Source: Cyanophora paradoxa CCMP329 (lineage: Eukaryota > Plantae > Glaucophyta). From it: 64,000 nt of DNA. The notes beneath the pieces were generated by a model. The model was given only the letters and a program-made list of their open reading frames with translations, ran no database searches and had not been told where the DNA came from. Position numbers and translations under genes: made by a program. How positions within the stretch are numbered: position 1 is the first letter of the stretch; every line of letters begins with the position of its first letter. The stretch is from the NCBI GenBank assembly GCA_004431415.1, contig QPMI01000280.1:1-64000 (forward strand). Direction: 5' to 3'. Below, piece after piece: positions 6,001 to 55,800 of this stretch.

Positions 6001-7662
6001 GAAGAAAGATGCACCCCAAATCTCTCTGGGGGAATATGCACAAGGCGCTAGCCTTGGGCAGATGACCCTCCCAAAAGCAAGACACTCAGTCAAAGGCCCC
6101 AGGTTTCCGATCTGCCACAAAATAGAAGAAAGATGCACTTCAAATCTCTCTGGGGGAATATGCACAAGGCGCTAGCCTTAGGCAGATGACCCTCCCAAAA
6201 GCAAGTCACTCAGTCATAGGCCCCTGGTTTCTCATCTGCCAGAAAATAGAAGAAAGATGCACCCCAAATCTCTCTGGGGGAATATGCACAAGGCGCTAGT
6301 CTTAGGCAGATGACCCACCCACCAGAAAGTCACTCAGTCGAAGGCCCCAGGTTTCCGATCCGCAACAAATTAGAAGAAAGATGTACCCCAAATCCCTCTG
6401 GGGGAATATGCACAAGGCGCTAGCCTTAGGCAGAGGACCCCCCACCAGCAAGTCACTCAGTCCAACTCCGCAGGTTTCCGATCTGCCACAAAATAGAAGA
6501 AACATGCACCCCAAATCTCTCTGGGGGAATATGCACAAGGCACTAGCCTTAGGCAGATGACCCTCCCACCAGCATATCACTCAGTCGTAGGCCCCAGGTT
6601 TCCGATCCGCAACAAATTAGAAGAAAGATGTACCCCAAATTCCTCTGGGGGAATATGCACAAGGCGCTAGCCTTAGGCAGAGGACTCCCCACCAGCAAGT
6701 CACTCAGTCCAACTCCGCAGGTTTCCGATCTGCCACAAAATAGAAGAAACATGCACCCCAAATCTCTCTGGGGGAATATGCACAAGGCACTAGCCGTAGG
6801 CAGATGACCCACCCACCAGCAAGTCACTCAGTCGAAGGCCCCAGGTTTCCGATCTGCCAAAAAGAGAAGAAAGATGCACCCAAATCTCTCTGGGGGAATA
6901 TGCACAAGGCGCTAGCCTTAGGCAGATGACCCACCCACCAGCCAGTCACTCAGTCATAGGCCCCTGGTTTCTCATCTGCCAGAAAATAGAAGAAAGATGC
7001 ACCCCAAATCTCTCTGGGGGAATATGCACAAGGCGCTAGCCTTGGGCAGATGACCCTCCCAAAAGCAAGACACTCAGTCAAAGGCCCCAGGTTTCCGATC
7101 TGCCACAAAATAGAAGAAAGATGCACTTCAAATCTCTCTGGGGGAATATGCACAAGGCGCTAGCCTTAGGCAGATGACCCTCCCAAAAGCAAGTCACTCA
7201 GTCATAGGCCCCTGGTTTCTCATCTGCCAGAAAATAGAAGAAAGATGCACCCCAAATCTCTCTGGGGGAATATGCACAAGGCGCTAGTCTTAGGCAGATG
7301 ACCCACCCACCAGAAAGTCACTCAGTCGAAGGCCCCAGGTTTCCGATCCGCAACAAATTAGAAGAAAGATGTACCCCAAATCCCTCTGGGGGAATATGCA
7401 CAAGGCGCTAGCCTTAGGCAGAGGACCCCCCACCAGCAAGTCACTCAGTCCAACTCCGCAGGTTTCCGATCTGCCACAAAATAGAAGAAACATGCACCCC
7501 AAATCTCTCTGGGGGAATATGCACAAGGCACTAGCCTTAGGCAGATGACCCACCCACCAGCAAGTCACTCAGTCATAGGCCCCTGGTTTCTCATCTGCCA
7601 GAAAATAGAAGAAAGATGCACCCCAAATCTCTCTGGGTGAATATGCACAAGGCGCTAGCCTT
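1..7662. repeat. 124-bp tandem satellite array (left), with variant and deleted monomers and local higher-order repeats
   Basis: The monomer GAAGAAAGATGCACCCCAAATCTCTCTGGGGGAATATGCACAAGGCGCTAGCCTTAGGCAGATGACCCACCCACCAGCAAGTCACTCAGTCGAAGGCCCCAGGTTTCCGATCTGCCACAAAATA (124 nt counted) repeats head-to-tail. Variant blocks recur at periods of about 540, 720 and 988 bp. Confidence 0.97.
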
Positions 7663-10496: not shown

Positions 10497-11009
10497 AGCT
10501 GAGCTTGGCGCGGTGTCTCCAACAATTAAATCCGCGAATTCTTACGATTTACCGTAACAGCATCGAATCTAATCGAAAATCACCGTAAGGCTCAGTGTCA
10601 CGATCGATTCATCTTCGATTCATCTTCGATTCACTCGATTCATCTTCGATTCAATCGATTCAATTCAACTTTTTATGCGCGGCTTCTCCCACGATTCCGC
10701 ACGATAGACAGTAAGGAGATCTATTGTACAATCGATTCCGCAAGATAAGCGGCAATGTACAATAGATCTCGCACGATAAACAGTAACAATTCACGTTTTT
10801 TCGTGCGGTGTCTCCCACGATAACAACACGCTTCAATAAAAATAAATCTTACGTCGGGTTTCGCCCTTCCCCCGTCGTTTTCGGTGCAGCAAATGGTTGC
10901 GCAACCATTTTTTTTGGTTGCGCAACCACCGCAACCAGGTCGCGCAACCACCGCAACCAGGTCGCGCAACCATTTTTTTTGGTTGCGCAACCACCCCGCA
11001 ACCATTTTT

Positions 11010-12079
11010 TTATGATCCCCCCCGCTTCGTTACGCCGCTCCTCAGATTGTACCGACGCCTCACGACCCTACTTCGATTGGGTCTGACGCCCTCCTTCGCG
11101 ACCAACCGATTCACCTTATTCGTTTTCTTTACGCGTTCAATGCGCTTTTGCGACGGGATCTTTATGATCTCTTCCTTATTCACCTTCTGTAATTCTTGCT
11201 TCTTAAAGCGCCGCTTTACTTCCTTCTCGTCTCCGTCGTTATCTTCTAAAATCTTGAACCGGTTCCCATCCGACCTTCCCACTTTGTAGACCTTTTGACT
11301 AAAACGGGCGCCCTCTTTGTCGAAGGCACCCACGCGACCCTCCAAAACACGCACTGTGTCGCCCGGTTTCACGGGATTCGTTTCATTCGCCTTCACGTTG
11401 TCGTTGTGAACAGTATCCCGTAGATACACAAAAAGTTGTTTATCTACGTTTGCATACACGGCGTTCGGCGAATCATTCTTTAAGGAACTATGGGGGCTAT
11501 TGTTATAAATCGATAGAACTTCGGGAACCATATCTATCCATTTCGTTGTCCCTTTCGAAGTCATCGACTTGCGTAGATACTGTTTAAAAGTGCGCGTAAA
11601 TCTATCTATGATTCCAAGTTTATTTCCTACGGTTATGTGTTCTTCTTTCGCGACATCTGTATACAACCTCACACCATTCGCATTACACCAATCTCTATAC
11701 ATCGCGCTACTGAATTCATTATCACCTGAGAGTGCAGCAACCATACCCGCTTCCTGTTTGAATTTATTCAGAATATTCGGAATGTCTTCGTTGTTCTTAA
11801 AAGGATACACGAATGCCTTTCGACTTAGAATGTCAACGAAACTGATCATCTTGTAAATACCATTGTTTGCTGTCTGATACCCTTTAAAAAACATAATGTC
11901 TACCTGAAATGAATTCGGTTTCGCGACGATTCTTAAAAATGTGGTGGGTTTTCGGGGTTTCTTAAAAATCTGATGCACTTCGGAATTTAAATATCGCTTT
12001 TCAATTCTTTTTCGTCAAATGTTACATTTTCGTTTATAAGTTTCTGTCGATACTTCTTGTAAGATAGAACGTTGTCCAT
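11010..12079 (-). CDS. Retroviral-like (rve) integrase of Polinton type; one-base frameshift in an A-run near 12000
   Basis: Catalytic motifs are FQVDIMF, SGDNEF and GIIDRFTRTFK, followed by YNNSPHSSL and an SH3-like C-terminus (PGDTVRV...QELQKV). The true start MDNVLSYKKYRQKL at 12079 matches copy 2 MDTVLSYKKYRQKL. The track ORF 11010-11978 lacks this N-terminus. Confidence 0.9.
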
Positions 12080-15000
12080 TACTGAGCAGCACAGTTACAC
12101 CTAATATGAGACAGGAAACAATTTTTGGTTGTATGGGGCAATGCGTTATTCACTCGATCGATCGAGATTACATTAAGATCGAAATCCATACCACCATAGC
12201 AACGAAGGCAATGACCATATTGTTTTCCGTAGCGTTTTTTGAACCACTCCCAATTCACATAATCGTTTTCGTCAAATGGTCGGTTTGCCTTCTTATCCTG
12301 TTCCTTATACTGTTCAATGCGCTCATTGAACTTGCGCTTGTCAACGACATGTGTTGCCCACTCGAATCCATCATGGTAAATTTTGACCCGATTTAGTTCA
12401 GTAGTTCGTGTGACCGCTGTGTAAAACCATTCGCTCGAAACAAACGGTGCGCCCGCTTCGTAAATGACGACGTTCCCATTCTTGCACACAATAGTATCAC
12501 CCTGAATGACGTGACAAGTGTAAGCGTAAGGGAGCGCGAAATAGCGCATTGCGGGCGGGTCTAACCTCACTTCCTCCTTCGTCGCGATGTCCTCGATGAC
12601 GAATTCTGTGTCGTTAAACGCCTTAATCGTGTAGCTGAACCCATTGTGAATGGTTACGCCATTCTTCACGATCCTTTGCTTCGCGACAATTTCCACGCCT
12701 TTCGCGTAAATAGGAACATCTTCCCCGTGATTCATCCTGTGGATTTGTAGATTTACTTCCGCCGCTTTGCGGTTGGTGTAAACTATCGCGCGGTCATCCT
12801 TTCCCAATGCGTTCACCGTCTCAAACTTGTATTTATTAATTACATCGGGAACACTCAAACCGTTTTCGAAAAGATCACGGCGTATACACTCGACTGTATC
12901 GCGATCTTCCTGGGTCTTGTGGCGCTTGTTAACTTTCAGGACTAACTCGTTTCCGAAAAGATGCCGAAGAATATACGCGTAATACTCTTTCTGATTTACG
13001 GTCATCTCCTGTATCGGTGGGTTCTGAAAGGGGTCGCCGGTAGCCACGTAGACCTTGTCGGGGAACAGAACCCCCATAATGTGGGCGAGCGCCCCCAACT
13101 CGGGGACTGTGAACTGACAGATTTCGTCAATGAAAATACCATCAAAGTCCGCCAAACCGGAAGCGTTCCCGCCTACGATCTCTTCCATGTTCGAATCGTC
13201 AACTTTGAGATGGAGCGCATCGTAAATAGTTTTGACATTCTTTATGCCTTTCAACTTCATGTCTCGAATGCGCTTGTTTGTCGGAACGATGAAAAGTGGA
13301 TTTTGGAATTGCTTCGAATACTCCATCATCATGTGAGTTTTCCCCACTCCGGGAACAACGCCAAGAATAATCCATCTTTTCTGAGTCGCAAGAGTTAGAC
13401 AAATCGCTGGTGTGTCGAATTCATCAACTGCTGAGAAAGTGAAATAGTTCAACTTCTCTAATTTCACGAAGTCGTCCTGTCGCTCCAATTTGCCGTAGTG
13501 AATACGCCGCAAGTTTAGCACCTTGTCTTTGCCGATATACTTCTTGATGAAATTGGGGCAATGCTTTACACTGAACCCCCCGATGTTTTCGTAGGCGTGG
13601 CGGTCGAAACTAACGAGGGGGATTGGGTCGCACGAGGTAGTGTAGACGCAATCGGTATTCACAGCAACAGGATTAATCCCTTTTGCACTGAGTTCTACGC
13701 ACTTCTCGTATAGATTCATGCGCATTAGGGAATACATCAGGTTGTGGAACGGCATGAACCCATCGGTAAGATATCTTTCGGCTACTTGATTCACATAGTA
13801 GATACACGGTTCCGTAATCTCTTCCTCGCTAATGACGTAACAAGTTGGGTCATACGATGTTGGATCTTTACCAAACACGTAGAGCTTTACTTCTCCGCCA
13901 TATTGCTTTTGGAATTCGATCGCATCGTCTCTCTTGTTGAAGATCGTGGTCTTTACTTTGTGGTTTTTCTGTTTCCCAATCTGTCCGATATTGGCGACAA
14001 GCATTTGCTTTTTATCGTTCGGGTCAAGATCACTTTGCATGATTTGCCGAATCACATCGCCCGAGAAATTCGGAACCAACTTAAATGGTCGGAGAACTCC
14101 CTTTATGGTAATGTCGTCTTTCAGAGCATCGTAGTGTTTTTTCAGAACCATTCCCGGAATGACATTGTAAGCCGAATCAATTAGCATGCGCTTGTGACGA
14201 TCATACGTGTTAAGAAAATACGTCGATCCGTCGGGGTTCTTCATTGGTTTGAAAAACTTCGAGTGCAACTTCACGTAATAGAAATTGTAGTTTTCGATCT
14301 GATCCGCGGAAGTTACAGTCGTCTTTTTGAAGTAATCGAATTTACTAACGACAGGAACGAATTCGATCTGTTTCGCGATGATTGCGGGGTATGCCTTGCA
14401 CACATCGTGTTCGTAAATGTTTTCGTTCCAATGGAGGTCATCCCGGGTTTCGGTATCTAAGTCGAAGAACCCACGAAGGGCGGTCTGTGACCCAAGGCGG
14501 AAGGCTGTCATGGTCTGATCGTTGTATGAACTCTTGTTTGCATTGTTCACGAGACTCAGATACATTTTCAGATTCAGCCGCTCGAACTTATCACGATACT
14601 CTGCGTCTTTGAATTTCACTTCGTAAGCGGTTTCCACATCTGTGTCGGAACCGGGTGGTGTGATCGTAATACTCTTTTCACCATACGTGAAATGAATGTG
14701 TGTGATCTTGCGCATTGGGGAAATCCCCGCATGCACCTGGTAATTCACATCAACAATGAACTCTTTCAGAAGATCGTCGAGGTATCCACTGTAACAGATC
14801 GAAATTTTGCTCTGGTTCTTCATCTCCTCCGAATTGATGATTTTCACGATATCCTCAGGAGTTGCCGCAAATTCGCGATGTTTTCTTTGCTTGACAATCT
14901 TGAATCGCGACCCCACCGAAAGATTCGTGTCAGAATTCGACTTCGACCCATTGAAAGAGTGAGTTAGTGATTTCAGGTTATCGTTTAGTAGATACATGTG

Positions 15001-16182
15001 ACCGTTTTCGATTTTCACGTATGCAACCGATGGCGTGAGGTGTGTATTTCTCGTTTTCGGTTTGAAAGTGAGTTCGGGTATTTCGGTCTTATCGTCTTTA
15101 TCGATCGTGACCATTCCGATGCGGTATGGTGTCAGAACCTTTTCTACGATTTCCTCAAAGGTGAAGCCCCAATCGTCCCCCTCTGTGGGTTCCCGACCCC
15201 GAATCATTTTAAATATTCCACTGTGTGTCCAATCGACCGATTTATACTTGCCTTTCGCTTGCGCTTTCTGAAACGCCTGTGCGAAATGCATCACAAGCAC
15301 ATCCGGAACACACCGACCCACTTTAAATCTATCACCCCTAATGAACAGTTCCCCCAAAGTTTTGGCTTTTGGGTTCGTCTCATTGCGCAAATACTTCGAT
15401 ATGATCATCGGGGCATGTTGCGTATCGCGTAGCGCTTGCTGTTGTCTCGGCGTATACGTTTGGTTGTCGGTGGTGATGATTCGTTCAATTGTGATGATCT
15501 CACCGTAAATGTCCTCTTGAACAATCGTCAAGTATCGGAAGTCCTGGTTTTCCTGATTGAAGCGGACGATTTCGAACATGAATTGATGGATGTCTTCGAC
15601 AGTTGTTAGAGCAGGGAAAGAATTGAATGTGTTCGTTATTTTTTCGAGATTTGCAAGCAGCGCTTCTTTCGAACATTGGATTGCAAGAGGTTGATTACTA
15701 CGGGTCTTTTTCAGATCCCGGTAATACAAACCGTTCGCTTGAATCACAACAGCGTTTGCGGGCAAATTCGCGATTTCGTCCTCTGCGACCTCTTTGTAAA
15801 GTCGAACATGCAGCGTGACCATGTCGCCTGGCGAGTTCGCAATGAACTCGCCAAGATCGGTTTTCATCCGATTGAACGGATTCGTGTGTGTCTTTGTGTT
15901 TCTCTCTGGTCGCTGATTCACCAACTCCTGTGGAACATCAATACGACCCAAGCGGTTAATTTCGTCTTCTGTGTTTTGCTGAGCCTCACCTCTCGCAATG
16001 ATATCATCAATTGAGTATTCGATGTCGTTCAGTGCGCTTAGTCTCGGTCGTCTGACGAAGGCAAAGTGACCGAATGCGTTAAATTGCTCTTCATTCATAA
16101 ACCCATTTCCAAGAGCATAACCAAGCTTCGAAAGAATACTCGCTCTCTTCTTAGCGGATTGGATACTAACTGCGCGAGGCAT
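12079..16182 (-). CDS. polB: 1367-aa replicase: N-terminal domain + vOTU-like Cys/His domain + protein-primed-type family B DNA polymerase + SF1 (Pif1/RecD-like) helicase + His-Me/HNH nuclease
   Basis: PolB motifs: A YEHDVCKAYP, B KKQMLVANIGQIGK, C AVNTDCVY. Helicase motifs: PGVGKT, IFIDEI, GDPFQNPP, YAYTCHVIQGDT, YTAVTR. C-terminus: CLRC...SIDRVNNALPHTTKNCFLSHIRCN. N-terminal RCVPD...NGHMYLL. The ORF is uninterrupted. Confidence 0.85.
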   Translation of the reverse strand: MPRAVSIQSAKKRASILSKLGYALGNGFMNEEQFNAFGHFAFVRRPRLSALNDIEYSIDDIIARGEAQQNTEDEINRLGRIDVPQELVNQRPERNTKTHTNPFNRMKTDLGEFIANSPGDMVTLHVRLYKEVAEDEIANLPANAVVIQANGLYYRDLKKTRSNQPLAIQCSKEALLANLEKITNTFNSFPALTTVEDIHQFMFEIVRFNQENQDFRYLTIVQEDIYGEIITIERIITTDNQTYTPRQQQALRDTQHAPMIISKYLRNETNPKAKTLGELFIRGDRFKVGRCVPDVLVMHFAQAFQKAQAKGKYKSVDWTHSGIFKMIRGREPTEGDDWGFTFEEIVEKVLTPYRIGMVTIDKDDKTEIPELTFKPKTRNTHLTPSVAYVKIENGHMYLLNDNLKSLTHSFNGSKSNSDTNLSVGSRFKIVKQRKHREFAATPEDIVKIINSEEMKNQSKISICYSGYLDDLLKEFIVDVNYQVHAGISPMRKITHIHFTYGEKSITITPPGSDTDVETAYEVKFKDAEYRDKFERLNLKMYLSLVNNANKSSYNDQTMTAFRLGSQTALRGFFDLDTETRDDLHWNENIYEHDVCKAYPAIIAKQIEFVPVVSKFDYFKKTTVTSADQIENYNFYYVKLHSKFFKPMKNPDGSTYFLNTYDRHKRMLIDSAYNVIPGMVLKKHYDALKDDITIKGVLRPFKLVPNFSGDVIRQIMQSDLDPNDKKQMLVANIGQIGKQKNHKVKTTIFNKRDDAIEFQKQYGGEVKLYVFGKDPTSYDPTCYVISEEEITEPCIYYVNQVAERYLTDGFMPFHNLMYSLMRMNLYEKCVELSAKGINPVAVNTDCVYTTSCDPIPLVSFDRHAYENIGGFSVKHCPNFIKKYIGKDKVLNLRRIHYGKLERQDDFVKLEKLNYFTFSAVDEFDTPAICLTLATQKRWIILGVVPGVGKTHMMMEYSKQFQNPLFIVPTNKRIRDMKLKGIKNVKTIYDALHLKVDDSNMEEIVGGNASGLADFDGIFIDEICQFTVPELGALAHIMGVLFPDKVYVATGDPFQNPPIQEMTVNQKEYYAYILRHLFGNELVLKVNKRHKTQEDRDTVECIRRDLFENGLSVPDVINKYKFETVNALGKDDRAIVYTNRKAAEVNLQIHRMNHGEDVPIYAKGVEIVAKQRIVKNGVTIHNGFSYTIKAFNDTEFVIEDIATKEEVRLDPPAMRYFALPYAYTCHVIQGDTIVCKNGNVVIYEAGAPFVSSEWFYTAVTRTTELNRVKIYHDGFEWATHVVDKRKFNERIEQYKEQDKKANRPFDENDYVNWEWFKKRYGKQYGHCLRCYGGMDFDLNVISIDRVNNALPHTTKNCFLSHIRCNCAAQ

Positions 16183-16417
16183 TTTGTTGGCGCTTTCCTT
16201 ATTCTATACAAATAAATTTATTCTTTAAGTGATTTTATTCTATGACGTCATTTTTTGACCGGCGCATTTTAGCGATCGGTCAAGCAAATAGGAAAAATAA
16301 CAAAGGGTCGACCATCATACAATGGTTCTAAAAATAATACAAACAAGATTTATTACGATTAAGCGCGGTTGCGCTCGCGCTGGGTTCTCAGGGCAAACGC
16401 GCTGAGAAAAAACAAGA

Positions 16418-16672
16418 TCAGAAGTAGATCGAGGGGCGCCCCCGATTTGAGTGCGGAACCCCATAAAGGTATTTAATGTAACACACGGCGTTAGCGACGT
16501 ACTGGCGTTGTGAACTATCGACTATCTTCATCGCTCGGTAACACTCGTCGGTGTCGTATAATTCCTTCATTTGTTTCGACAGTCTGTTGCTGTACTTTTT
16601 AAGATATTCACGACCCTTTTCGGTCTTGCGGTAACGGTAAATTGCGCGCTTCTGTGCTTCGCTAATCGGCAT
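16418..16672 (-). CDS. Small basic 84-aa protein, possible DNA-binding regulator
   Basis: MPISEAQKRAIYRYRKTEKG...GVPHSNRGRPSIYF. A syntenic homolog lies at 47154-47370. Confidence 0.7.
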   Translation of the reverse strand: MPISEAQKRAIYRYRKTEKGREYLKKYSNRLSKQMKELYDTDECYRAMKIVDSSQRQYVANAVCYIKYLYGVPHSNRGRPSIYF

Positions 16673-17037
16673 CGTACTTTGTCCTCTTCTGATATATAAC
16701 AAGAAATCTTTAAGTCCTTTTTGTTGTTGGTATATACTTGTCTTGAAAAGCCGTCATTTTTTTGCACCGTTTTGAAAGAAGATGCCGGAAAAATAAATCG
16801 AAGTGTCCCCGATTGTCTACTTGTCGGTCGCAAGTTTCCACGAATGAACCCCGTAGAACAGGTGATAAAAGCGCGATATACATGGATATCACTTCTTTCT
16901 ACAACGCCACCCATAAAAATGAGTAAACGTGAGCCTACGCGAATGGATTGTTTACGTAGCGCTACATTTGAACAAGAAATTTTTTAACGGCAAAATGATC
17001 ATTTACGCAAAAACGTCGGGCTACGCAAAGGTCGGTT

Positions 17038-17494
17038 TTAAAACCTCCGGTAACCGGGGCGGATCCCAAGTTTTGCGAACCCCGAAAGCATGGGGGCGGC
17101 GGAGGGAACCGATGTAATGGGGTCGGCTTGCGAAGTGGCGACCCGAAGTAAACTCTTGTTCATTACCGGTAAATCGGTCTTGTTACTCTCCGCGTAATCG
17201 ATGGTCTTAGCGATTAATTCAATTGGCGTATTCTTCGCGGTTGTGATTGGATCGGGAAGAACGTCGAACGTCACATCCGGTTTCTTTTCGACCTTCTCTT
17301 TCGTGATCTGCTGTTCGAGAATCTTGTTCTCTAACGCGGTCTCGTTCGCAATCCCCTGAACCATTTTTTTGGCGTCCTGGTATTTGACCGATTTAAGACC
17401 GCCCGTTTTCAAGCGGATAAAGTAACGATTGCGGTTATCCTTCTCCGAGTATGTCGAATAAAGTCGCTCGCCGCCATCATAAAGTCGCTCGCCG
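17038..17494 (-). pseudogene. 5'-truncated homolog of the 46032-46778 viral gene
   Basis: DGGERLYSTYSEKD...AAPMLSGFAKLGIRPGYRR aligns closely with the 46032 product. The N-terminus in the track ORF is satellite sequence, and there is a ~21-bp tandem duplication at the breakpoint. Confidence 0.85.
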
Positions 17495-32208: not shown

Positions 32209-32465
32209 AGCTGAGCTATACGCCATTACTCCGCACGTTTAAACTTCCGAGATCCAGCGTATCCAATCGGATTTATTACGATATTCAGTGTATCCAATCG
32301 ATCTAATCGAGAAACTCAGTATTCTCAGTATTGCAATCGACGAGATTCCCGATATCCTTCAATCGATAAAATCTAAACCATTCTCAGTCTGAAAATAAAA
32401 ATAATCCGCTTCAATTCATGCAAAAAATGAAAGAGTTTAAAACTATTATCACATCGATCTACAAA

Positions 32466-32738: not shown

Positions 32739-32812
32739 GTTTTAGCTTGATGCAAAAATTGATTGAATTTTAAGAATGCTTAAAAAGAAGTAGTAGAAAT
32801 CGAAATATCACA

Positions 32813-33511: not shown

Positions 33512-33912
33512 CTATACCGTAATCGTAGTGGGTTCATTACTAATTCTTACTGATTCTCTCTTTTTTATCGCTCGTCTCTTAACAAACTTGCGAAACGCTT
33601 TCAAATCATCATCTGTTATTATTGCACGGTCTGTGTATACTTTGATGTCATACCCTTGTAATCCAGTTATGACGGTCTGATAGTTGTAACCCCAAAGTCT
33701 TCTTGTCCAATCCACCATTATATTCATCAAATGCACAATTAAACTCTTTTTCGTTCCCAAGAATATTGAAAAATACCACAAATTCCACGTTACGACGAAT
33801 GGTAGTAGAAATAGAGCATATACGTTGGACATTGAAAATAACCGTGATACCATAATGTCTTCCGCTCGTTACCAGTTTGGATAACACAGCCGAATTATGC
33901 ATATCCAAATTA
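33512..33912 (-). pseudogene. C-terminal remnant of an A32/FtsK-like genome packaging ATPase
   Basis: LSKLVTSGRHYGITVIFNVQ...IRRNVEFVVFF matches the GRH, Q and IRxN motifs of A32 ATPases. The Walker A/B half is missing at the Helitron junction, and there is a frameshift near 33690. Confidence 0.78.
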
Positions 33913-36900
33913 GATCAATTTTTAACGTCCTGGCTCCCCTAAGACGACCGCTCTCCCGTGGGCGTCGTGCGAAATCGAATTTCCCTCTGCATCAATTCCG
34001 GTACTTAACCTCCGACAAACACAGTCCAGGTCCGAAGGTGGGACCCGGTCCCGCCCGGTTCCGCGACGAAACTGCGCCAAGCACGCCCCAGAACGATACA
34101 GAATGCCGCGCGAGGGCGAGCGCATCGCCGCAAGCTCGATTTCGGGCGGCCTCGAGCTCGACGCTCCAGTGCGAAGAGTCGGCCGAAAATTTGATCCAGC
34201 CGGTCCCGCAACGTCCCGCGACGCGCGCAATCGATGCGTACGGACGCGCATAGACATAGCAGGGCCTGCGCACCCCCGAAATCCGCTTTTCGGAGCCGGA
34301 ATAGCGCACGAAGGCTCCGGCGGCAAAAATTCGATCCTGCACAGGCCCCGACATCTTTCCCCGCGCGCACGCCGCGGCGCATGCGCGGAACAATAGTATA
34401 AGTATTTGAGATGTAGACGAAGCATTCTGCACGCTTTGCAGGTGCGCTGGGCCGCGAGGACCCAGCCGACCCCAAAAATTCGATCCTGGGCGGACCTGTG
34501 CATCTTTCCGCGCGCCCTCGCGTGCTCACCCATGCCCATCGCTACCTAGTATTAATTTGAGATCTATACGAAGCCTTCCGCAATCTCTGTGGCGGGGACA
34601 GAGCACGAGAATCCAGCCGACCCTAAAAATCAGATCCTGGCCACGCCTGCACATCTTTCCGCGCGCCGTCGCCTCCGCGCCGCAGCCCTCCGCATTGATG
34701 CTATATGCATTCGAGATTCTGTTTAAGCGGTTCGCAAGCTCTGCGCATGCATATGCGCCTGGCTGCGAACCTCGCCCCTCCCGGGCCTCCGGATCCCCCC
34801 CAACAATTGCAATATATTAATATGAAATTAATCTCCTCTCAATTGCAATCTGCTCCACCAGTTGAAACCAAGCATTACCGGTCCAACTCCTCCCCTAATT
34901 ATAATAAGCTATCGGACCAGCCTGGCAGCATGGCCCGGCAGCCAGCCAGCTGTTCAGCCAGGCCGCTGGCAGTGCGCATGCGCCAAGCCTACCGTGCACG
35001 TGCCTACTCGCCAAGGAGCGCGTCGATCCGCTCCATGCGGCCAGGGCGCCCGGCCTCCCTCCGAACAACATTATATAATTATTCTCCGAGCGATGTAAAT
35101 TAATGTGACTCCAGTAGACTAGAGGCTGTGGCCGGAAATTCACCAAAAACAAAACACTAGGCCTAGGCTGGGGAGTGCTTACTATTAAATATTCCTCCGA
35201 GGCTCGCCGGCGAGTCGCCGGTAGGCAGTACTTACTACCGCGGTAATTTGCTGCTGAGAATTCGAAGTCGCGCCATACAGTACCGTCTGAAATTACTTAA
35301 AAAGCTTCCCCGTACAATTGCAAGCCTCAAAGTTTTAAACCCGCGTTAATTTCGTACTGCGGTATTTCGGTCAGAGGACGCCCATTTTTGAAACCGCGTT
35401 AATTAACGCGCAGTAATTTAGTGCCCGACGGTATTTCAGACTAGCCGACTCGGGCACGACCAGCTATATATAGTGGACCGCCGGACCTGCCGCTGGCTGC
35501 CATGCAATGGCATGCATATCGCCAGCTTCCCAGCTTCCATGCATATCCCTACTGATTCGCCAGCTGGCCAGCTTCCAGCCAGACAGGTCAACGGTCAGAC
35601 AGGTTAAAAAAAGATCTTGAGAACGCGAAAAGGCCATTAACAGAAGATCTTGTCAAATCTTGAATAAAAAAAAGATCTACCGAAACCAAAACGGCGCCAT
35701 TGCCCAATCCACCGTGCATGTACATCGATACATATAGACGAATGGATGCACAGACTAACACAGTCATACACTACTAGTAGTGTAGAGCTTATGCTAGTGT
35801 TGATCGACACATAATCTACCTTCCAATTCACAAAAGATTTTGCGGATCTCACTGATTCAGATCTAGAGTCTTAGCTATAGCGAATCTCGAGATTCTCGAC
35901 GTTCGCGACTCGGCGATGACCGCAAACGCTATAGCTATATATCTCGTACTGACTGCCACTACCAGGGCCCGGCGTTTCTCGCTGTTGCGGCACTACGTAG
36001 CGAGAAATTAAGGACGCGTAGCAGATATTGAAAAACCGCTAGAGGCAAGATCGGAAGCTCGGCGCTTGCGTGCAGCTCAAGCTTGCGTGTAGCTTACGCG
36101 GCTGAGGAAAACCGCGTAGCCCCGGAGCTCCCAGCGCCGCGATTGGCTGCCAGGCTGCTCGCGTAACGCGTAGCTTGCGGCTGTAGCTTAGGCGCGGAAC
36201 CTTAATCTTCAAATTAGGGTTCCGCGCGTAAGCAAAATTGCTTACACTCCGTTACGAAATTACCTTTTCCTTGATATCGCTCTACGTAGCTTAATTCGTA
36301 AGCGCTACGTAAGGCCTTACGCGCAAGGCCGCCATACATTTTGGCGACAGCGAGAAACGGCCCTGCCAGGCCGAGCCTCGGAGGCTGGACCGTCGCACGC
36401 CGCACTGCGGCATTTCGAAAGCGCGAATTCGAAATGCCGCAGTGCCAGCAAGCCTAAGCCGCCAGCTCCAGTTCCCGGCGGCCAGACACTCGCACGCAGT
36501 GCCAGCCGACTCCCGCCTGCAGATCTGGCCAGCAACAACGCTAGCTAGCTACGACTCTTGCACGCCACTGGGCCAGCCTGGCAGTGCTCGCGATCGTGCC
36601 ACGGTGCCGCAGTGCTAGCCTATAGTACCGTATACTAGCCTAGTAGCAACATCGACGCCAGAGCGCGCAAGCAGTAATTGCCAGGGAGCTTAAGCAGACA
36701 GTGCGTGGTCAGGCTGGCCATGGCTAGCGCCCGATCGGGGGCCTGGACAGCTACTAGACTATAGCTAGCTACGAATCTTGCACGTTACCCTAGTACTACG
36801 GTAGTGCTCGTGCTATAGCTAGTCTAGCATACGTACCTGCATGGCCGCCTCATCCCGCAAGCAGTAAGTGGCCAGATTAGCCTATACTAGCAAGATCGGC

Positions 36901-45096: not shown

Positions 45097-45999
45097 ATGA
45101 CGCGTTACTATCTTAATATTGATTCCCGGGATCGGGATGATGGAACCCCCACAAACTATTCATACAAACTTCCCCATGCAATCCAAAATGTTAAAGCATG
45201 TCGTGTTACCAATTTCGAAATGTTCAATAACATTTACAATCTCAGCGAAAATGGAGCGCTCGTAACCTCTACACTCGATGGACAAGGAGCAACCAAAACT
45301 AAATCAAACACAATTTCAAAAGGGGCATACACAGCAGAGAGTTTGGTGAATTATCTAAATGCTCTACTGTTATCCCAGACATACAGTGCATCGGGAACTA
45401 CATATACCCGTCATTTCAATGTGTCTTATGACTCTACCACAATGAAACTAAGGATTATTGGCGAAGCAACATTTACTATACGTTTCGGTAGTCGGATTTT
45501 AGCCAATTTCTTAGGTTTCCCGGATCCATCAATTAATGGCTCGGGTTTAGGTTATCCATCCACACCTCTTGGTTCACCCGTTACTGTTGGTGGTTTTACT
45601 TATAATCATTACCTCGACAGTGTCATACCACTCGATCTTCTGTTTAATTCTTACATCCTTCTACATGTCGATCCACTCAAAGGCAACTACGTAAGCAAGA
45701 ATACCAGCGATGATAAAACCTTAGCTAAAATTGAGATTGACCAGACCGTAGGTAGTCTCCTAAAATATGATTCTACCAATAACTCTATGATCATTCATGA
45801 GCAAAACGGATTAGTGGAAGTTGAGACGCTTAAAGTGCGTTTGACGTATTGGAATGGTAACGAAACGGACATTACCACGGATTGGTCAATGACCTTAGAA
45901 CTGATCACTGAAGATGAAAAGGATCTAACGAAAGCAGCATTGAAAAACGTCGTTAGAGATTTGGAAAACGTCTATTTACCATTTGGTCGTAATATGTAA
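45097..45999 (+). CDS. Minor capsid (penton-like single jelly-roll) protein
   Basis: N-terminal YLNIDSRDRD...NYSYKLP..IQNV and C-terminal YILLHVD...LAKI...LKVRLTYWNG...DWSMTLEL resemble PLV/NCLDV pentons. The 300-aa ORF is intact. Confidence 0.75.
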   Translation: MTRYYLNIDSRDRDDGTPTNYSYKLPHAIQNVKACRVTNFEMFNNIYNLSENGALVTSTLDGQGATKTKSNTISKGAYTAESLVNYLNALLLSQTYSASGTTYTRHFNVSYDSTTMKLRIIGEATFTIRFGSRILANFLGFPDPSINGSGLGYPSTPLGSPVTVGGFTYNHYLDSVIPLDLLFNSYILLHVDPLKGNYVSKNTSDDKTLAKIEIDQTVGSLLKYDSTNNSMIIHEQNGLVEVETLKVRLTYWNGNETDITTDWSMTLELITEDEKDLTKAALKNVVRDLENVYLPFGRNM

Positions 46000-46031: not shown

Positions 46032-46778
46032 ATGGCTCGTAAGACACAACCCAAGAATTTCTTAGCAAAACCCGTCGAACAAGCGGAACCGGAACGGAAG
46101 CATTACAAGAAATCGAAAGGAACCGCAGCGTTTGGAACCGCTGATATCGAAAAGAATATTAATAATATGATTAATTCCCATGCTGTGGCGCCAGTAGACG
46201 ACATTAACGATGGTAACGCCCTTGTTGAGCAAGTGCCGCTAAATCGTATGCCCGGTGCAAAGCGTGGGATCAAAAAGGGGCAGTTCAACAGTTCCACCGT
46301 TGATGCCGTTAACAAGAAGTCTACTCTTCTTAAACTTCTCGATGGCGGTGAACGTCTGTATTCCACGTATTCGGAAAAAGACCACCGTAACCGTTACTTT
46401 ATCAGAGCAACCACTGGTGGACTGAAAACGATCACATACAAACACGCTAAAAGTCTCATTGAGGGAATCGCTGATGAGACACAAAAAGAGAAGAAGATAA
46501 CAGAGCAACCGATAACCAAAGAGAAGGTAGACAAGAAACCAAATGTTACGTTTGATGTCCTACCGGATCCGATCAAAGAGGAGAAACACACACCGACGGA
46601 ATTAATCGCTAAGACGATCGATTACCAAGAATCCAATAAAACGGATTTACCAGTGCTTAACAAATCAATCCTCCGGGTTGCTACATCGCAATCCGACCCG
46701 CTTAACTCCATTCCAAATGCAGCGCCGATGCTTTCCGGATTCGCTAAATTGGGTCTCCGCCCAGGCTATCGCCGTTAA
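46032..46778 (+). CDS. Conserved hypothetical viral protein (248 aa, Lys-rich)
   Basis: Intact ORF from ATG 46032 (MARKTQPK), with a close homolog at 17038-17494. Confidence 0.8.
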   Translation: MARKTQPKNFLAKPVEQAEPERKHYKKSKGTAAFGTADIEKNINNMINSHAVAPVDDINDGNALVEQVPLNRMPGAKRGIKKGQFNSSTVDAVNKKSTLLKLLDGGERLYSTYSEKDHRNRYFIRATTGGLKTITYKHAKSLIEGIADETQKEKKITEQPITKEKVDKKPNVTFDVLPDPIKEEKHTPTELIAKTIDYQESNKTDLPVLNKSILRVATSQSDPLNSIPNAAPMLSGFAKLGLRPGYRR

Positions 46779-47625: not shown

Positions 47626-50001
47626 AGAACGCCTAAGGATGCCTCGCGCTGTAAGTTATCGGAATGCTAAGATTCGTAAAGAAATTAGAGCGGTAAATGA
47701 TTATGGATACGCGAGTGGGTTTCTGACTGAGGAACAGTATGATGCTTTCAATTACTTTGCCTTTCAGAAAAGACCAAGGGGGAATGGATTGAATGATATC
47801 TTATATTCGATTAACGATATCATCGCACGCGGTGAAGCTCGACAGAATGCGGAAGACGAAATACGTCGTCTCGGGGCTATTGATGTCCCACAGGAACTTG
47901 TGAATCAGCGACCGGAGAGAAACACGCAGTCTCACATGACCCGGTTCAATCGCATGATGAAGATTATCAGCGACAGTATCGAAAATTCAAACAGTGAAAC
48001 GTTTTCGGTGATGTTTCTTCTCTATCGGGAAGTTACCGATGAAAACGAAAGAATACCCGAACGTCGTCGAATACCCGAAAGAGGGCGGTAAACGCTACTA
48101 TACGCCAATGAAAGGGAGAAAGGATGAATCACTACATGGGATTACTTGCAATAAAGCCACACTCATTAGATCTCTTGCACTCTCAAAAGACATTTTCCGA
48201 AAGAAGCCATGTATCCGTGAGTATGACATTAACGAATTCATCCTTATTAATTTGGAATCCGGACGTAATCAGGATCTAACATACCTTCGACATATATATA
48301 GTGATCAATACCCTTCCGTCTTAACAATCGAAAAGATCATACCAGACGGTCAAGCGAACATTATCCCGAAGGTGAATCAAATTCTACGCGAATACCAAGC
48401 CCCCATGATTTCATTCAAATATCTCGGTTATGAAATCCCGACAAATGCTAAATCATTTGCAGAACTATTCGATAGAGACGGTATATATCAGTATCGTATT
48501 AAGGCGTGCGTTTTCGATGCGCTTGTTCTTGTTTTCGCTTCCGCTTTTGAGAAGGCAAAAAAACAAGGTCGTTATGGTTCTGTCCGTTGGGATCATGCCT
48601 ATTTGTTTAAAATGGTGCATGGAAGAGATCCCGTGGATGGTGATGATTGGGGGTTATCATTAAACCAAATGATCGATAAGATATTGAAGCCTTACCGCAT
48701 TTCGCTTGTCGTTGTTGACGAAATGGACAAGATCGACCACGATTTATCTTATATTCCGATGGATTCTGAGGGAAAGCGAATAAGAAACAAGCGACTGTGT
48801 CCTTCCACTATGTATGTGAAGATTCAAAATGGACACATGTATTTGCTGAATAAGAAGGTGGAAAGTCTCATACAGTCTTTCAATGGAACTAAACCGGTTG
48901 AAAAGAAACGCCCACTTTCTTGCAGATACAAGATTAACAAGAAGTTCAATCATAGCTATTTCGCACGCAATCCTGATGATATCGCGGTAATCCTCCATTC
49001 GAAGGCAGTCGAAGATAAGACACTTATTCGTATCATGTATGGCGGCGAAGGTGGGCTTAATGCATTATACGCGTATTTCGTGGCGGTTCATAACTACATC
49101 CCCGATGCGAAGGTTTCCCTTCTAAGATCCGTTCAAGACATCAAATTTAAATACGGCGAAAAGGATGTATTGATAGTAGGGGTTTGCTCTGATGTGGATG
49201 TAGAAACGGCTTATAACATTCAGTTTGATAACGAAGAGCAACGCGACACGTTTTCGAAGTATAACCACAAATTCCGGTTATCTTTGATCAATTCCCAGCA
49301 TAAGAGCTGTTACAATGAGAACACGCGAAATGCTTTCATCATTGGTTCCCAAAGTGCATTAATCGGACGCTTTGAGGATTCAGCAGAGATCGCGAAAGAT
49401 TTAGCGGATGGTGTCCTAAAAGTAATCGAACATGACGCCATTAAATCTTACCCTTCTCATCTTAACAGTCTCGAAGAATTCCCAGTATTTAGCGAATTCG
49501 ACGATTTCAAGCAGGTAACCGTGAATTCATCGGACGAAGTCGAACCTTACAGTTTCTACTATCTGACACTGAAAAAGGGAACCTACAAGATCAAGAAAGA
49601 CACGAAAGGCAAAGAATACATTTCATATCAGTTTCCCAAGGTGAAACGTATTCTCGTAGATTCCCCATGTAATCTTCTACCCGGCTTTGTTCTAAAAGAG
49701 CATTTCGAAGATCTGAAAGACATCGTGGACATTAAAAGCGTTCTCAGACCATAACGACCTGTCAAGAACAACGTTAAACACATGATTAAACAGATCTTAG
49801 AAAGCAATTCTTGTAAGAAGCAGATTCTTGTAAGTGTTATTCTTGTAAGTGTTATTGGAATGCTCGGTAAACAGAAAAACCAAAAGTTCAGAACTAAGAC
49901 ATTCTTTAACAAATCCGACGCTTATGATTACGCTAAGAAGCATGGCGGGGAGGTGAAGTTACTTTATTTGGGTAAGCAGGAACAGACCGAGGAGTTCTAC
50001 G

Positions 50002-53000
50002 GTTTTTTTGGAAAGTCTGCTCCATTCGTACACACATGACAGCAGTCCCCCGCTCCGCGCCTACCGGATACTGGGAAAGCCAAGCTACACTGAGGAAAAG
50101 GGCGAGCTCGGTTCTATAGCTTGTTGTCGTAGTCGAGCTGATGCTGAAGCTGTAGCCGTCAGGTCGCCCCCAACACATAATATGCGCCGGTCCTCAAGTA
50201 GGAGGCGTAGGCATGCTGAGCTACACGGTCCTAGATGCCCTCTTGCTGGTTCTAAAACATGGCCGCGGGTCGCTCGTGAAGGGGGGAGTTGAGAGAGGAG
50301 GTGGGGAGGGAGAGATGGGAGGGTAGGTTCAGGTTGTTGCGCTGGGTCTTGGATCGCGCCGCCCAAGTCCACGGGTGCGGCGGGGTGTTGGGAGCAGGGC
50401 GTCGCTGGCCGAACGTGAGGAGCCGAAGCTCCTAAACCTCGGCCTTACGGGCCCGCTGGGCCCTGCCGACGCCGCGTTCGAGTCTCCTCCAGCTGGGCCT
50501 CCTCCCGCTCCCGTCGCCGCCGTGGGGTCCTGAGCGGGCGCGTCCTTACCTATGCGCGCACCCTCGTCCTAGCCCGCCCCCCCCCCACTCCGAACCCCCC
50601 CCCCCCCTCTTCCTATCTATATTGCAGGAGGACGAAGGCAAAAAACTTCCAAAAAGGCCTTCGCGTTCACATTAGGGGCTGAGCCCGGGGAGGAGAACAT
50701 CAGTTCCAGGCTAGGGGCACAACCCCATGAAATCTACTGTTGTAGACGTGAAAGTTCATTCGACTGAAAGAAAAGATTGTCCAAAGAAAGGAAGGATAGC
50801 TAGAGAAAGGGTCTCCTGCACAGGAGAGGAAAGGAGCTAGCTGCTCGATAGCTCCGGGCGGCCGTGAGCCGGAGCCTCCCGCCTTCGAGGCTACGCTGCC
50901 TGGTTGAGGTAGCGTTTGGCCGCCTTGTTGGCGGCGATCTCCGCGGCCTTCTGGGCGAGCCGGCGCTTGCTCTCGCGGCCGGTCTGCTGGCGCGGGGCTG
51001 GCGGGGCCGGCATCATGCCGGCGGCAGCGGCGGCGGCGGCGGCTTCGCGCTCAGCCGCACGGCGCTCGTTGCGACGCATCTGCGGGCAGCGGGGTCGGTC
51101 ATTCCGAAGGAGACGGGCGGGCGCGCTGGGCTCGCCTCGGACGGAGACTGGTGCCGGTGGACCGGGCGTTGCATGTCGAGGAGGCTGAAGCGGCGGACCG
51201 CGCTGCTCGTGGTGCTGACGGAGGCGGCGGACACGACGGAGGCGCGGTCGTCGTCGTCGCTGTCGGTGTCAGCGTCGGCGTTGACGGCGGCGCGCGTGCG
51301 CGCAAGGTCCGTCCGGAAGGTGTCAGTGGCGGAGCGCGCGGCGGCCGCCCGAGCCGCTTCGGCGGCCGCTTTCGCCACCGCGGAGCCCACGGGCGCGCCG
51401 CAGACACGCACTGCCTTGGCGGCCGCGTAGTCGGCGGTCTTTTTGATGAAGTCGTCTTGCGCCTTGGGGCACTTCCCGGTTCGCCCAGGGGTGGCCGTAC
51501 GGGTCGTCCATGATGCAGCACGCCTGTAACGGAGTGAGTGTGCGCGAGTTCGCGACGCATAGACGCGGCGGGGCGTCGCGCGTACCGAGGTACAGATGAT
51601 GCCGAGAGGCTCGCCGGCGGGCGCCGGAATGAGACGGAAGCGGATGTCGAGCGGGTTGAGGCCGCCGACACGCCAGCGAGGCCGGGAGTTGCCCAGCGGG
51701 TGCGCAGCAAAGAAAGAAGAGTTGACGTAGCGCTCGAAGTCCGGGTTGCGGAGGACGAGGCGGAGGGCGAAGGGCGCCTGCGAGGTCGATTCGACGTAGA
51801 AGATCTCCCAGTGGTGGATGTTCTCCACGCCACAGTGGCGGAGAAAGTGCACGACCTGGGGGCGCGCCCGTCAGGCGTCGGCGTGGGTGCACGCGTACGC
51901 GGGCACGTGGGGCGGTGCGCGCACCAGCGAGCCGTCCGGGCGGCGGCCCTTGGGGGCGGTCATTAGCAGCACGATGGCGTCCTTGGGGTACTCGCTGAGC
52001 GGGAACCGTTGTTCCCCGGTCGCCGTTACGTCACGGATGCAGACCTGATGCTCGCTTTCAAGGATCGCGTAGTCCTTCGACATTGCCAGGAGCACGTCCG
52101 CGTACTGCCCGAACAGATTCTCGTCAGCTTAAGAGACCGGGTGCGAGGTGTGGGCGCCATCAGGTGCGCACCTTGCGAGGCATGGCAGCGAAGAGGACGG
52201 GGCGGGCGTTGAGCCGCTCCTGGCGGTCTTGCGCGAAAGTCGAGGCCTCGTATCCGATGCCGAGGATCGCGTTCTGGACCTCCACCGGGTCCGGACGCGG
52301 GAGCTTCGCGGAGGTGAAGGCGTTGACGATGAACGACGTCACCTTTTCCTTGCACTCCTCATGGCGGATGTGCGTGTGCTGGTCCGTTTTCTTCTCGCCG
52401 CGGCCGTCTGCAAGAGAGGGGCGACGGCAGGGTAAGGCACGTGCGCGCAGGGCTCCGCAGCGCGGCGGGGCGTACAGAGAGGCGGCATGCCGTGGAACGC
52501 GAGTGTCGGGTTCTCGCGGTCCTCGATGAGAATAGTGGACTCGAAGTGAATCCTGAGCAAGGGTGGAGTGAGAGGCGGTGAGCGCGCGCACGGGTGCGAG
52601 CACGTGCACCGGTCATTGTTGAGGTCCCGAATGTCGAGCTCTCGCAGCTCCTCTATCGTCTTGTAAACGGCGGCCTTGTCGTCGAGCTGCCGCACGCAGA
52701 AGGCGAAGGTGTTGGACACCGGGTAGTTCTCCGTGACCACGACCTTGCTGGCAAGGCCGTGTAGCTTGAGCTGTTGCTCGAGGTGAAGCATGATCTCCCG
52801 CTTGGACGGGTCGCGGTTCTGGAAGTTGCAGCCGGGAATGAAAGGCTTGCACGCTTCCTTGTAGGCGAACAGTGCCGCATTGTAGGACTGGAGTCGGGAC
52901 TCGGCTGTCTTGCCGTAGGGAACAACTTCGGTGTAGCCGGCCTGTGCCGACGAGTTCGCCGGGTTTATCGGAGCTGGTAGTCCCGACGGCGGGGCCGGTC

Positions 53001-53273
53001 CATCGGTCATCATTTCGTCCGAGCTCGAGGAGCGCGAGTTCGTCGATGAGGAAGCAGGGCGAGGTGTCTGTCCGGGCACGCCTGGCTTGACGCCCAGCGA
53101 GCCGATGCCGGGAATCTGGGGAAAGTGTCGGCCGACCGTCGCAGCGGGCACCGCCGCGGTCCGGCACGCACCAGAGATGCAGTGGACATCGGGAGAGGCT
53201 CTGACGAGCAGCAGGGACGCCTATGCGGCGCGACGACCTTGCGGTCGTGAACTTTCCGGGTACCGGAAAGTCC
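50002..53273 (-). mobile_element. 3.27-kb GC-rich insertion with an 18-19-bp TSD, oligo-A 3' end and an intron-containing gene; no RT or transposase seen
   Basis: Direct repeat CAGACCGAGGAGTTCTACG at 49983-50001 and 53274-53292. T7 at 50003-50009. The PolB frame (QEQTEEFY|DEYEDP) resumes after the insert. Confidence 0.88.
50891..53189 (-). CDS. Spliced gene of unknown function, possibly ORF1/gag-like; predicted introns 53116-53171, 52553-52609, 52408-52475, 52105-52171, 51856-51924, 51524-51585
   Basis: ATG 53189 (MSTASL|IPGIG). GT-AG introns of 56-69 bp, most with CTGAC/CTCAC-like branch sites, connect the track ORFs in frame. A Cys/His cluster CTS|ACC...GH..C lies near 51470-51590. The 3' end is uncertain. 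Confidence 0.6.
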
Positions 53274-55069
53274 CAGACCGAGGAGTTCTACGACGAATAC
53301 GAAGACCCACAGGTAATGTGTGATGAGTTGGACATTAAGGTTCCGCACGTGTGGTATGTTATCAAAGTTGAGGATAAGTTACTTATCGATGGGTTCCTTC
53401 CAATTCAGTGTATGATTTATTCCATGCAGCGCATGCGTCTTTACGAAAAGTGCAAGGAATTAAAGGGGATTGTTGGAGCTATTAAGGTTGATGCGGTCTA
53501 CGAACTAATCGATGAAGGCGAAAAAGTCGATTACATCACGCTCGACCGAACCAAATATGAGAATATTGGAAAGTTCACCAGCAAGCCCATTAATTCCAAG
53601 GATTACCACAAAAAGGTGTATCAGAACAAAGGGAAGAACTCAAACGGTAACATCCGATTTTGCAAGCCTGAGAGAATGAAGGATTTCGTCCAAACGCACA
53701 CATGGGAATGCAAAACTTACACTGTTGCGGATGAATTTAGCACCCAGTCCATCTGTGATTTGATGCATAACGGTAAGAATCGGATCGTGAAGGCTCTTTA
53801 TCCGGGAGGCGGAAAATCGACCGCTTGTTTCGCAGTGACCAAAGCATTTCTCAAAAACCCCGCGTTCATTGTTCCTTTCAATAAGCGTGTTAAGGAATTG
53901 AAGACTGAAAATGGGTTTACGAATGTGTTCACCATTCATGATGCTTTCAATCTCAGGGTAGATAACAACGATATGGACGATGTCGTAGGTATTAATGTGC
54001 GGAAGTTAGAGGCTCACGATTGTTTCGTAATTGATGAAGGGTATCAGTGGACTATTCCGCAACTTGCCGCGCTTAAACATGTTATGACGGTTGCGTCCCC
54101 GGAGAAGACATATATAATCAATGGTGACCCTACACAGAATCCACCTATTCAGTTCCTAAGCGTGGATCGAACAGCTCTTTTCGTGTAAGTTGGAACTTCT
54201 AATAGACAAGCGCCATGTTTTGCCGGAGGATCGGGAAATGATCAAGGAGATGAAGAAAGACCTTATCGAAGGTGATATGGAGGTTTCCGCGATGATTCAG
54301 AAATATAAGTTTCAAGTTGTTCACCCCGACGAATTGCAACCGGGCGATAAGATTATTACTTACACGAACCGGAAAGCCGCACAGATGAATGCTTTCATAC
54401 ACCGTAAAAAAATGGTAAAGATGCTCCGACTCATTTCAAAGGTCTCGAAATCGTCGCAAGGCATCGAATCACCAAAGGGAAGACGGTAGACGGTGAGCGC
54501 GTTATGATCCATAATGGATTCTCGTATATTATCGAAAAGATCGACGAAACCACACTTACGATTTCGGATTACGCGGATCGAAACATAGTAATCACGCTTC
54601 CCTATGATTGCATTCAGAGCTTCTCGTTTCCGCATGCTAATACCTGTCACGTTGCGCAAGGCGACACCATTAAAAATTCTCGTGTTGCGATCTGTGAAAC
54701 GAGTTCTCCTTACGTTAATAAATATTGGTTTTGGGTAGCCATTACACGAACGCCGTATTTAAAAGACACGGTTATTTGCGTGGATGAAAGCGAAATATTC
54801 AATATGGGTGCGTTCAAAACCCGAATGCATCGATCTATTCAGGGATACAAGCAACAAGACCAGAAGGCAGAGCGACCTTATGATGAATCCCAGTATGTTA
54901 CATACGAATGGATCAAGCAAAGGATGGGTAAACAATTTGGGTTCTGTTCAAGATGCTACCAAATCATGGATCTCGAAGAAGTTTCGGTAGATCGTGAAAA
55001 TAACGCAGTCGCTCATGTGATAGGGAATATTTCCCTCTCTCATATTAGTTGTAACTGTGCCGCGCAGTA

Positions 55070-55800
55070 ATGGATACCGTCTTATCTTACAAGAAATACC
55101 GGCAGAAGTTGATAAATGAAGGTGTGAGTTTTGATGAAGCGAAATTAAAACAGCAGTTTGCAAATTCGGAATTACAACAAATTTTTAAAAAACCCCAGAA
55201 ACCTTAAACGTTTTTAAGTATCGTAGCTAATCCCCGTTCATTCCAAGTAGATATTATGTTTTTTAGAGGATTCCAAACAGCAAACAGAGGAATGGGAGAG
55301 GCGCTTACGTTTATTGAAATTCTTAGTCGAAAAGCGTTTGTTTATCCTTTTAAAGACTCTTCCGAAATTCGCGATATATTAGATAGATTCAAACGGGATG
55401 CGGGAAGAGTTGTAGGATTGGCGGGAGATAATGAGTTTAGCAATGCAGTTTATCGGGAATGGTGCAGTGCGAATGGCGTAGAACTTTACACAGATGTAGC
55501 AAAAGACGACCATGTAACAGTTGGTAATAAGTTAGGTATCATAGATAGATTCACAAGGACTTTTAAGCAATATCTGAGAAAGGCGATGGTTGCAAAAAGG
55601 GACAAGTAAATGGCTCGATTTAGTAGGCGATGTTTTAAACACTTATAATACATCTCCTCATTCTTCTTTGAAGAACGACACACCAAACAACGTATACAGT
55701 AATGACCAAAAACAATTATACATTTACCTACGTGACAAAGTGCATAATGAAAGATTGACACAGAAAGAAGTGGGAGACGTCAAACCGGGCGATACAGTTA
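55070..55800 (+). pseudogene. rve integrase (copy 2), with an internal stop, a frameshift and 3' truncation by satellite
   Basis: MDTVLSYKKYRQKL...FQVDIMF, AGDNEF, GIIDRFTRTFK, YNTSPHSSL. It ends at PGDTVR, where the 124-bp satellite begins. Confidence 0.9.

Follow-up and report, generated by a model that had tools for sequence, protein, structure and literature searches.

A probable pPolB-S1H replicase gene of a truncated endogenous Polinton-like virus in Cyanophora paradoxa

A 64,000-nucleotide stretch of the Cyanophora paradoxa CCMP329 genome (contig QPMI01000280.1, positions 1 to 64,000; hereafter the window) carries a gene for a protein of 1367 amino acids (aa), which very probably is the pPolB-S1H (Tlr1-like helicase) of a truncated endogenous Polinton-like virus (PLV) and likely served as its all-in-one genome replicase. 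A variable N-terminal region is followed by a vOTU-like cysteine protease domain, a likely exonuclease-fold remnant, a protein-primed-type family B DNA polymerase (PolB) palm, an SF1B helicase and a C-terminal HNH nuclease domain, and an rve integrase gene adjoins the replicase gene (Table 1). A preliminary description made from the DNA letters had proposed an intact open reading frame (ORF) with essentially these modules. The frame is indeed stop-free on the minus strand, and all the motifs quoted are found where they were placed (RCVPD with C291, NGHMYLL with H395, NTDC with D844 and the terminal CxxC..SIDR..H...N....H..CN), as are ACVFD, NGHMYLL and KVDA in a second copy on the plus strand; the domain reading agrees with the structure model, profiles and conservation counts presented here. 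Its further claim that the lineage is new or poorly described does not hold, the same architecture being published (PMC5499653 and PMC11161782), whereas its suspicion that PolB-helicase fusions exist in PLV datasets proved right: they are described as common in PLV surveys.

Domain architecture and residue conservation

Using aa 268-1367 as query against 1.84 billion representative proteins, 937 matches were obtained at E<=0.001, of which 576 passed 1e-10 and 224 passed 1e-30; the best relatives are about 30% identical to the replicase. The conservation sample comprised 151 proteins (the best 150 of the 937 and P0002), from which 122 of at least 1150 aa were counted and 29 shorter ones excluded. 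The protease residues C291 and H395 are present in 120 and 122 of the 122 relatives, respectively. In the palm, D593 (motif A) and Y598 are each kept in 120, and the Lys and Gly of motif B (K725-x3-V729 and G733 in the replicase) and D844 of motif C (NTD844) in all 122; in the helicase, the Walker A lysine K948 is kept in 121 and E1020 of the DE pair at 1019-1020 in 122. The HNH domain retains the cysteines of CxxC in 114 and 115 relatives, R1343 in 113, H1350 in 111 (Tyr in 3) and N1354 in 115. Ten key residues spanning all four modules occur together in 108 of the 122, and since the key residues are kept in nearly all relatives, the motif matches are beyond chance.

Other searches returned little. 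One relative was found by a word-index search and none when a small alignment served as query; pattern scans for closer relatives gave no match in viral contigs (IMG/VR) or metagenome contigs; the replicase protein had no phmmer match in the PDB, and the 1367-aa sequence alone had none in PHROGs. In 37 members Pfam recognized neither a PolB nor an OTU family, so the PolB and OTU domain calls rest on structure.

A single-sequence fold of the replicase was unusable (predicted local distance difference test, pLDDT, 33.6), and aa 100-925 were modelled with a 58-row alignment (pLDDT 81.3, predicted template modelling score 0.83). The nine top rows of Foldseek against the PDB are all phi29 polymerase (E 6e-9 to 1e-6), with RNA-primed PolBs ranking below at E 1.6e-3 or worse; VIA against 48,161 chains gave phi29 at Z 14.7 (root-mean-square deviation 5.0, 357 residues aligned) and the runner-up entry at Z 8.5. 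By both methods the palm is closer to phi29 than to RNA-primed PolBs by a wide margin. Matches in BFVD are the pPolBs of bidnavirus-like entries, mavirus (E 3e-8), tectivirus and adintovirus, the top one being H6WBE3 (E 4e-16), an accession of which no mention turned up in our literature search. OTU-type proteases account for 12 of 50 VIA rows, 11 of them restricted to aa 258-406 and each of Z 4.0-4.8, singly the background level of VIA; the assignment is made because these weak rows agree on one region, and the invariant Cys and His lie within it. The fold comparison suggested in the preliminary description thus recovered an OTU-like fold (aa 258-406) as well as a polymerase of the phi29 type. 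Judged by position, which is the sole basis, aa 1-257 would correspond to the terminal-protein-like domain of published members; aa 100-257 form an alpha/beta unit modelled with moderate confidence (pLDDT of blocks 41-84), and aa 1-280 had no phmmer match among the 151 retrieved relatives.

The absence of ExoI and ExoII motifs noted earlier stands, yet the region from aa 434 to about 585 superposes on a portion of the exonuclease domain of phi29, and the protein may thus be exonuclease-less in its motifs rather than wholly in its fold. In the phi29 alignment, 357 pairs span chain residues 5-499, the first of these residues pairing with model aa 434. Taking residues 5-189 as the limits of the phi29 exonuclease domain, which we assume, at least 47 of the 357 pairs fall inside it, because residues 190-499 number 310. 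From aa 434 the model shows strands and helices with high confidence, and it suggests that part of the exonuclease fold is likely retained without its catalytic motifs. Within aa 400-591, five columns are acidic in more than 45% of relatives, the best in 91 of 122 (D470) and none invariant. An hhalign comparison of aa 400-600 with 44 phi29-like exonuclease regions was not significant (E 0.4), in a test so insensitive that the palm itself reached only E 0.08. An intact exonuclease was rejected, as the ExoI, ExoII and ExoIII motifs are absent.

The helicase assignment comes from a 127-row family profile, which matched Pif1-like, RecD and Dda chains of the PDB at 1e-18 to 1e-11 (Pif1-like 1e-18 to 8e-17, RecD2 1e-13, Dda 6e-13). 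For the C-terminal domain, four of five aligned members have PHROG endonuclease VII/HNH matches (best 7.9e-9), though the replicase by itself has none. This domain shows D/N-R in place of the usual D-H, together with the conserved loop His H1350. A match to PacI is weak, with E 0.046 for the 127-row profile and none for a 5-row HNH profile; the PacI-group His-Me enzymes, mostly viral, are without the canonical His and use a loop Tyr instead (PMC5714182; PMC3384342 and PMC4081073 agree).

The two copies and their surroundings

In favour of a Polinton-like virus are the rve integrase, the tentative penton-like gene and the fragment of an A32-like ATPase that the window contains. Copy 1, with the intact replicase, sits in a 45% GC island (10497-17478) within a 206-bp satellite array. 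Its rve frame is broken near the 5' end (about 12.0 kb) in the window, and the contigs of four of four sequencing runs differ there; the break may reflect either an error in the assembly or damage to this copy. In the rve of both copies (11010-12014, minus; 55208-55609, plus) IDRF stands against VERV in L001, an IMG/VR contig described below, with Asp at the third acidic position. Position 10497 is likely a true terminus, because in run X2 this end is joined to other flanking sequence. At the other side copy 1 is cut mid-gene by satellite at 17478, beyond which run contigs continue in non-satellite sequence, and the arm expected to bear the capsid genes is missing from it. The truncation junction shows a 21-bp tandem duplication (17458-17497), of the kind that repair of a deletion break would leave. 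The stretch is present, with many divergent variants, in 20 listed runs, which come from 13 studies and a single organism and include no RNA run, a gap without bearing on expression. Among the 40 variants listed out of 241, 25 lie inside the ORF, 24 of these at third positions and 22 synonymous, a bias that points to purifying selection among copies.

Table 1. Features of the two copies and of the A32-like fragment in the window
Feature	Coordinates	Strand	Basis or remark
Copy 1: element end with subterminal short repeats (TRF)	10497..11009	-	starts AG at 10497; satellite stops there
Copy 1: rve integrase, directly downstream of replicase	11010..12078	-	4e-13 to rve of L001
Copy 1: replicase gene, pPolB-S1H (Tlr1-like helicase)	12079..16182	-	intact, 1367 aa, uninterrupted by stops
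C-terminal Zn-binding HNH (His-Me finger) domain, D-R replacing D-H	12082..12315	-	PHROG matches in relatives
SF1B (Pif1/RecD/Dda-like) helicase, aa ~920-1270	12373..13425	-	family profile; Pfam AAA_19 0.0014
Protein-primed-type PolB palm region, aa ~586-890	13513..14427	-	Foldseek and VIA matches to phi29
Likely exonuclease-fold remnant, aa ~434-585, without ExoI/ExoII/ExoIII motifs	14428..14883	-	phi29 structural alignment
vOTU-like cysteine protease domain, aa ~258-404, C291/H395	14971..15411	-	VIA rows and conservation
N-terminal region, aa 1-257, variable	15412..16182	-	published terminal-protein-like position
Copy 1: small basic ORF upstream of replicase	16418..16675	-	
Copy 1: conserved hypothetical gene, 3' part	17038..17478	-	76% to aa 101-248 of copy-2 gene
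A32-like packaging ATPase fragment	33657..33914	-	Pfam Pox_A32 E 7e-4, under curated cut-off
Copy 2: penton-like (minor capsid) gene, lead only	45097..45999	+	Atlas feature matches
Copy 2: hypothetical gene, full-length	46032..46778	+	
Copy 2: replicase	47639..55070	+	in pieces: frameshifts, stop, 3.3-kb insertion
Copy 2: rve integrase, broken	55071..55790	+	cut by satellite

The copy-2 replicase is 56, 41 and 37% identical to aa 1-141, 153-772 and 783-1367 of copy 1, respectively. Its insertion (about 50.0-53.3 kb, 66% GC) has the 17-mer CAGACCGAGGAGTTCTA on both sides, and three ORFs tested in it have no Pfam match except weak ones. Atlas feature matches link the penton-like gene at 0.97-0.98 with viral clusters, in one of which 17% of the members carry DUF5901; the recognition value lies below the reliable line, and the gene has no match in Pfam, the protein database or the capsid-like genes of L001-L003. 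The A32 fragment lies beyond a Helitron in a 38% GC island (32300-33900) and may belong to copy 2; small ORFs (32418-32738) stand beside it, and the island may represent a further Polinton-like arm. Distant relatives of the replicase are encoded on three IMG/VR contigs (L001, L002 and L003), each 15-16 kb long. In L001 (16 kb, inspected in full) the replicase is followed by an rve integrase, a capsid-like gene (Capsid_N 0.017) and Pox_A32 (1.7e-10). Small CxxS/CxxC ORFs, presumably glutaredoxin-like, lie upstream of the replicase in L001 (683-976) and L002 (two, 502-1108).

The Helitron (37528-44534, plus strand, 60% GC) separates the A32 fragment from copy 2 and encodes a Rep domain (Helitron_like_N, 1.7e-9) and a Pif1 helicase (3.3e-7); it is a separate element, and a Helitron or Pif1 origin of the replicase gene was rejected. 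Two decayed long-terminal-repeat-retrotransposon-like regions with pieces of protease, reverse transcriptase and integrase occupy 22500-32300 on opposite strands, and 29315-30162 is repeated inverted at 33929-34782 (79%). Satellite families of 124 bp and 206 bp, sharing a core of about 30-40 bp, lie at positions 1-10500, 17495-22492 and 55799-64000. A non-satellite insert of about 320 bp (9570-9891) in the 206-bp array has no match within 22.5-55.8 kb. Both viral copies abut satellites, further element-satellite junctions are present in run contigs (X2 at 10497, X18 at 14168), and the arrays may collect insertions.

Relation to described replicases, proposed function and alternatives

The Tlr1-like helicases were described in 2016 (PMC5499653) as proteins 1000-1400 aa long that have a pDNAP palm, a mutated motif C and an SF1 helicase but no exonuclease, the PLV members ending in HNH and Tlr1 in GIY-YIG; the vOTU with its conserved Cys and His and the name pPolB-S1H date from 2024 (PMC11161782). 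Such fusions occur in many endogenous elements (PMC13215967), polB-SF1 is one of the common PLV replicases (bioRxiv 10.64898/2026.06.19.733378), and PolB pairs with DDE integrases (bioRxiv 10.64898/2026.10.13.758929). The literature found under the family names, in the passages available, reports no biochemical test. Our protein shares with the family its length range, the variable N-terminus, the vOTU Cys/His pair, the pPolB palm, the SF1B helicase and the C-terminal HNH, as well as the lack of exonuclease motifs and of the first motif-C Asp; it differs in having Val for the motif-B Asn and in an apparently partly retained exonuclease fold, the exonuclease domain of pPolB-S1H being stated as lacking in PMC11161782. 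The architecture is therefore not new, and the replicase is an ordinary further member of the described PLV family. Possible refinements are the likely exonuclease-fold remnant, the loss of the motif-B Asn in a subclade and the nuclease Arg for His, some of which the figures of PMC5499653 and PMC11161782 may already show.

Among individual systems, Tetrahymena Tlr1 likewise combines a pPolB-S1H with an rve integrase (and a capsid module, PMC5499653), whereas its protein ends in GIY-YIG. Mimivirus transpovirons, of about 7 kb, encode a pPolB-S1H with vOTU and have no capsid genes, unlike the truncated window copies, which have penton-like and A32 remnants next to them. The mavirus pPolB shares the order of terminal protein, vOTU and palm, an exonuclease remnant and the missing first motif-C Asp (PMC11161782), and differs in that the mavirus helicase is a separate SF3 gene rather than a fused SF1. 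The phi29 DNA polymerase is the closest solved-structure match to the palm, yet it has active proofreading, DTD, a thumb and a separate terminal protein, and no helicase, protease or nuclease. The stand-alone pPolB, exonuclease motifs and DTD of Polintons/Mavericks proper are not found in the replicase.

We propose that the vOTU Cys/His pair would cut off the N-terminal part, which would prime synthesis at the genome ends, following the model in PMC11161782, and that the palm would extend DNA through D593 and D844 without proofreading, as published models imply. SF1B helicases translocate 5'-3' (PMC5499653); given this polarity, the helicase would travel on the displaced strand in the same direction as the polymerase. 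Since that is the direction of the fork, a tethered helicase would suit end-to-end strand displacement. The phi29 alignment ends at residue 499-531, beyond which we take the phi29 thumb to lie, and the helicase may supply processivity in place of that thumb. A nicking or DNA-binding role is likely for the HNH tail, and the rve enzyme would integrate the linear genome. The preliminary description had put forward a helicase-assisted, possibly self-processing replicase without proofreading, and the model, profiles and conservation counts lend support to this predicted mechanism.

The main rival keeps the family assignment and takes the palm to be catalytically dead: it would serve the helicase as a scaffold for DNA binding or priming, and a polymerase of the host or of a giant virus would copy the genome. 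We regard this as unlikely. In its favour, as had been noticed at the outset, motif C lacks its first Asp, and DTD occurs in none of the 123 sequences; motif B reads K-x3-N in 110 of them, K-x3-V in 9 (the replicase and 8 relatives) and C or L in the last position in 4; the phi29 alignment stops short of the thumb; and inactivation was argued in PMC5499653. The replicase falls in a 13-member clade (FastTree support 0.99), 12 of whose members are without the motif-B Asn, in a tree of unnamed relatives; its neighbours in the helicase tree differ from that clade, with weak support. Against a dead palm, D593, Y598, the motif-B Lys and Gly and D844 are near-invariant at about 25% overall identity, and PMC11161782, in which activity is predicted despite the missing Asp, lists active PolBs that are without the same residue. 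It is very unlikely that the gene belongs to a capsid-less, transpoviron-like replicase-integrase unit and to no virus: copy 1 is of transpoviron size (about 7 kb) without a capsid gene, and no major capsid protein was found in the window, but copy 1 is cut mid-gene at 17478 while run contigs continue, and copy 2 runs into the penton-like gene with the A32 fragment further left. A complete transpoviron (about 7 kb, two ends, no capsid module) was rejected for the same truncation and because the family extends further. A new, lineage-defining replicase architecture is exceedingly improbable; the low identity of the best relatives, the empty IMG/VR pattern scan and the silence of Pfam would fit it, but the layout has been in print since 2016 and 2024, is common in PLV surveys and is matched by 937 clusters.

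Several points weigh against a functional pPolB-S1H replicase of a Polinton-like virus, which we nevertheless prefer. Besides the background-level OTU scores, polymerase activity is doubtful in the subclade of the replicase, judging from its sequences, which have neither the first motif-C Asp nor the motif-B Asn. The counted relatives are the best matches, a sampling that favours whole-length alignments, and the likeness to pPolB-S1H is drawn from published descriptions. The replicases of L001-L003 are distant (24-25% identity), and L002, with a capsid module of the L001 type, has no rve following its replicase. The window holds no inverted-repeat pair, the single end at 10497 being without a partner, and no major capsid gene was found in it, both copies being truncated.

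Implications for the family

As an architecture the replicase adds nothing to what was published in 2016 and fully annotated in 2024. More tentatively, and with considerable doubt, pPolB-S1H proteins may keep a dead exonuclease core as mavirus does, their HNH domain may be a fixed PacI-type nuclease (Arg for His, with the loop His as base) acting in replication or end processing instead of being a passenger, and the subclade may be an active but exceptionally error-prone replicase. If true, an exonuclease remnant common to pPolB-S1H and mavirus would bear on the published claim of independent losses of proofreading in these two groups. The activity of the palm is disputed, the 2016 paper (PMC5499653) holding it inactive and the 2024 paper (PMC11161782) predicting it active; being intact, well modelled, multi-copy and under purifying selection, the replicase is a fair candidate for deciding whether pPolB-S1H palms polymerise.

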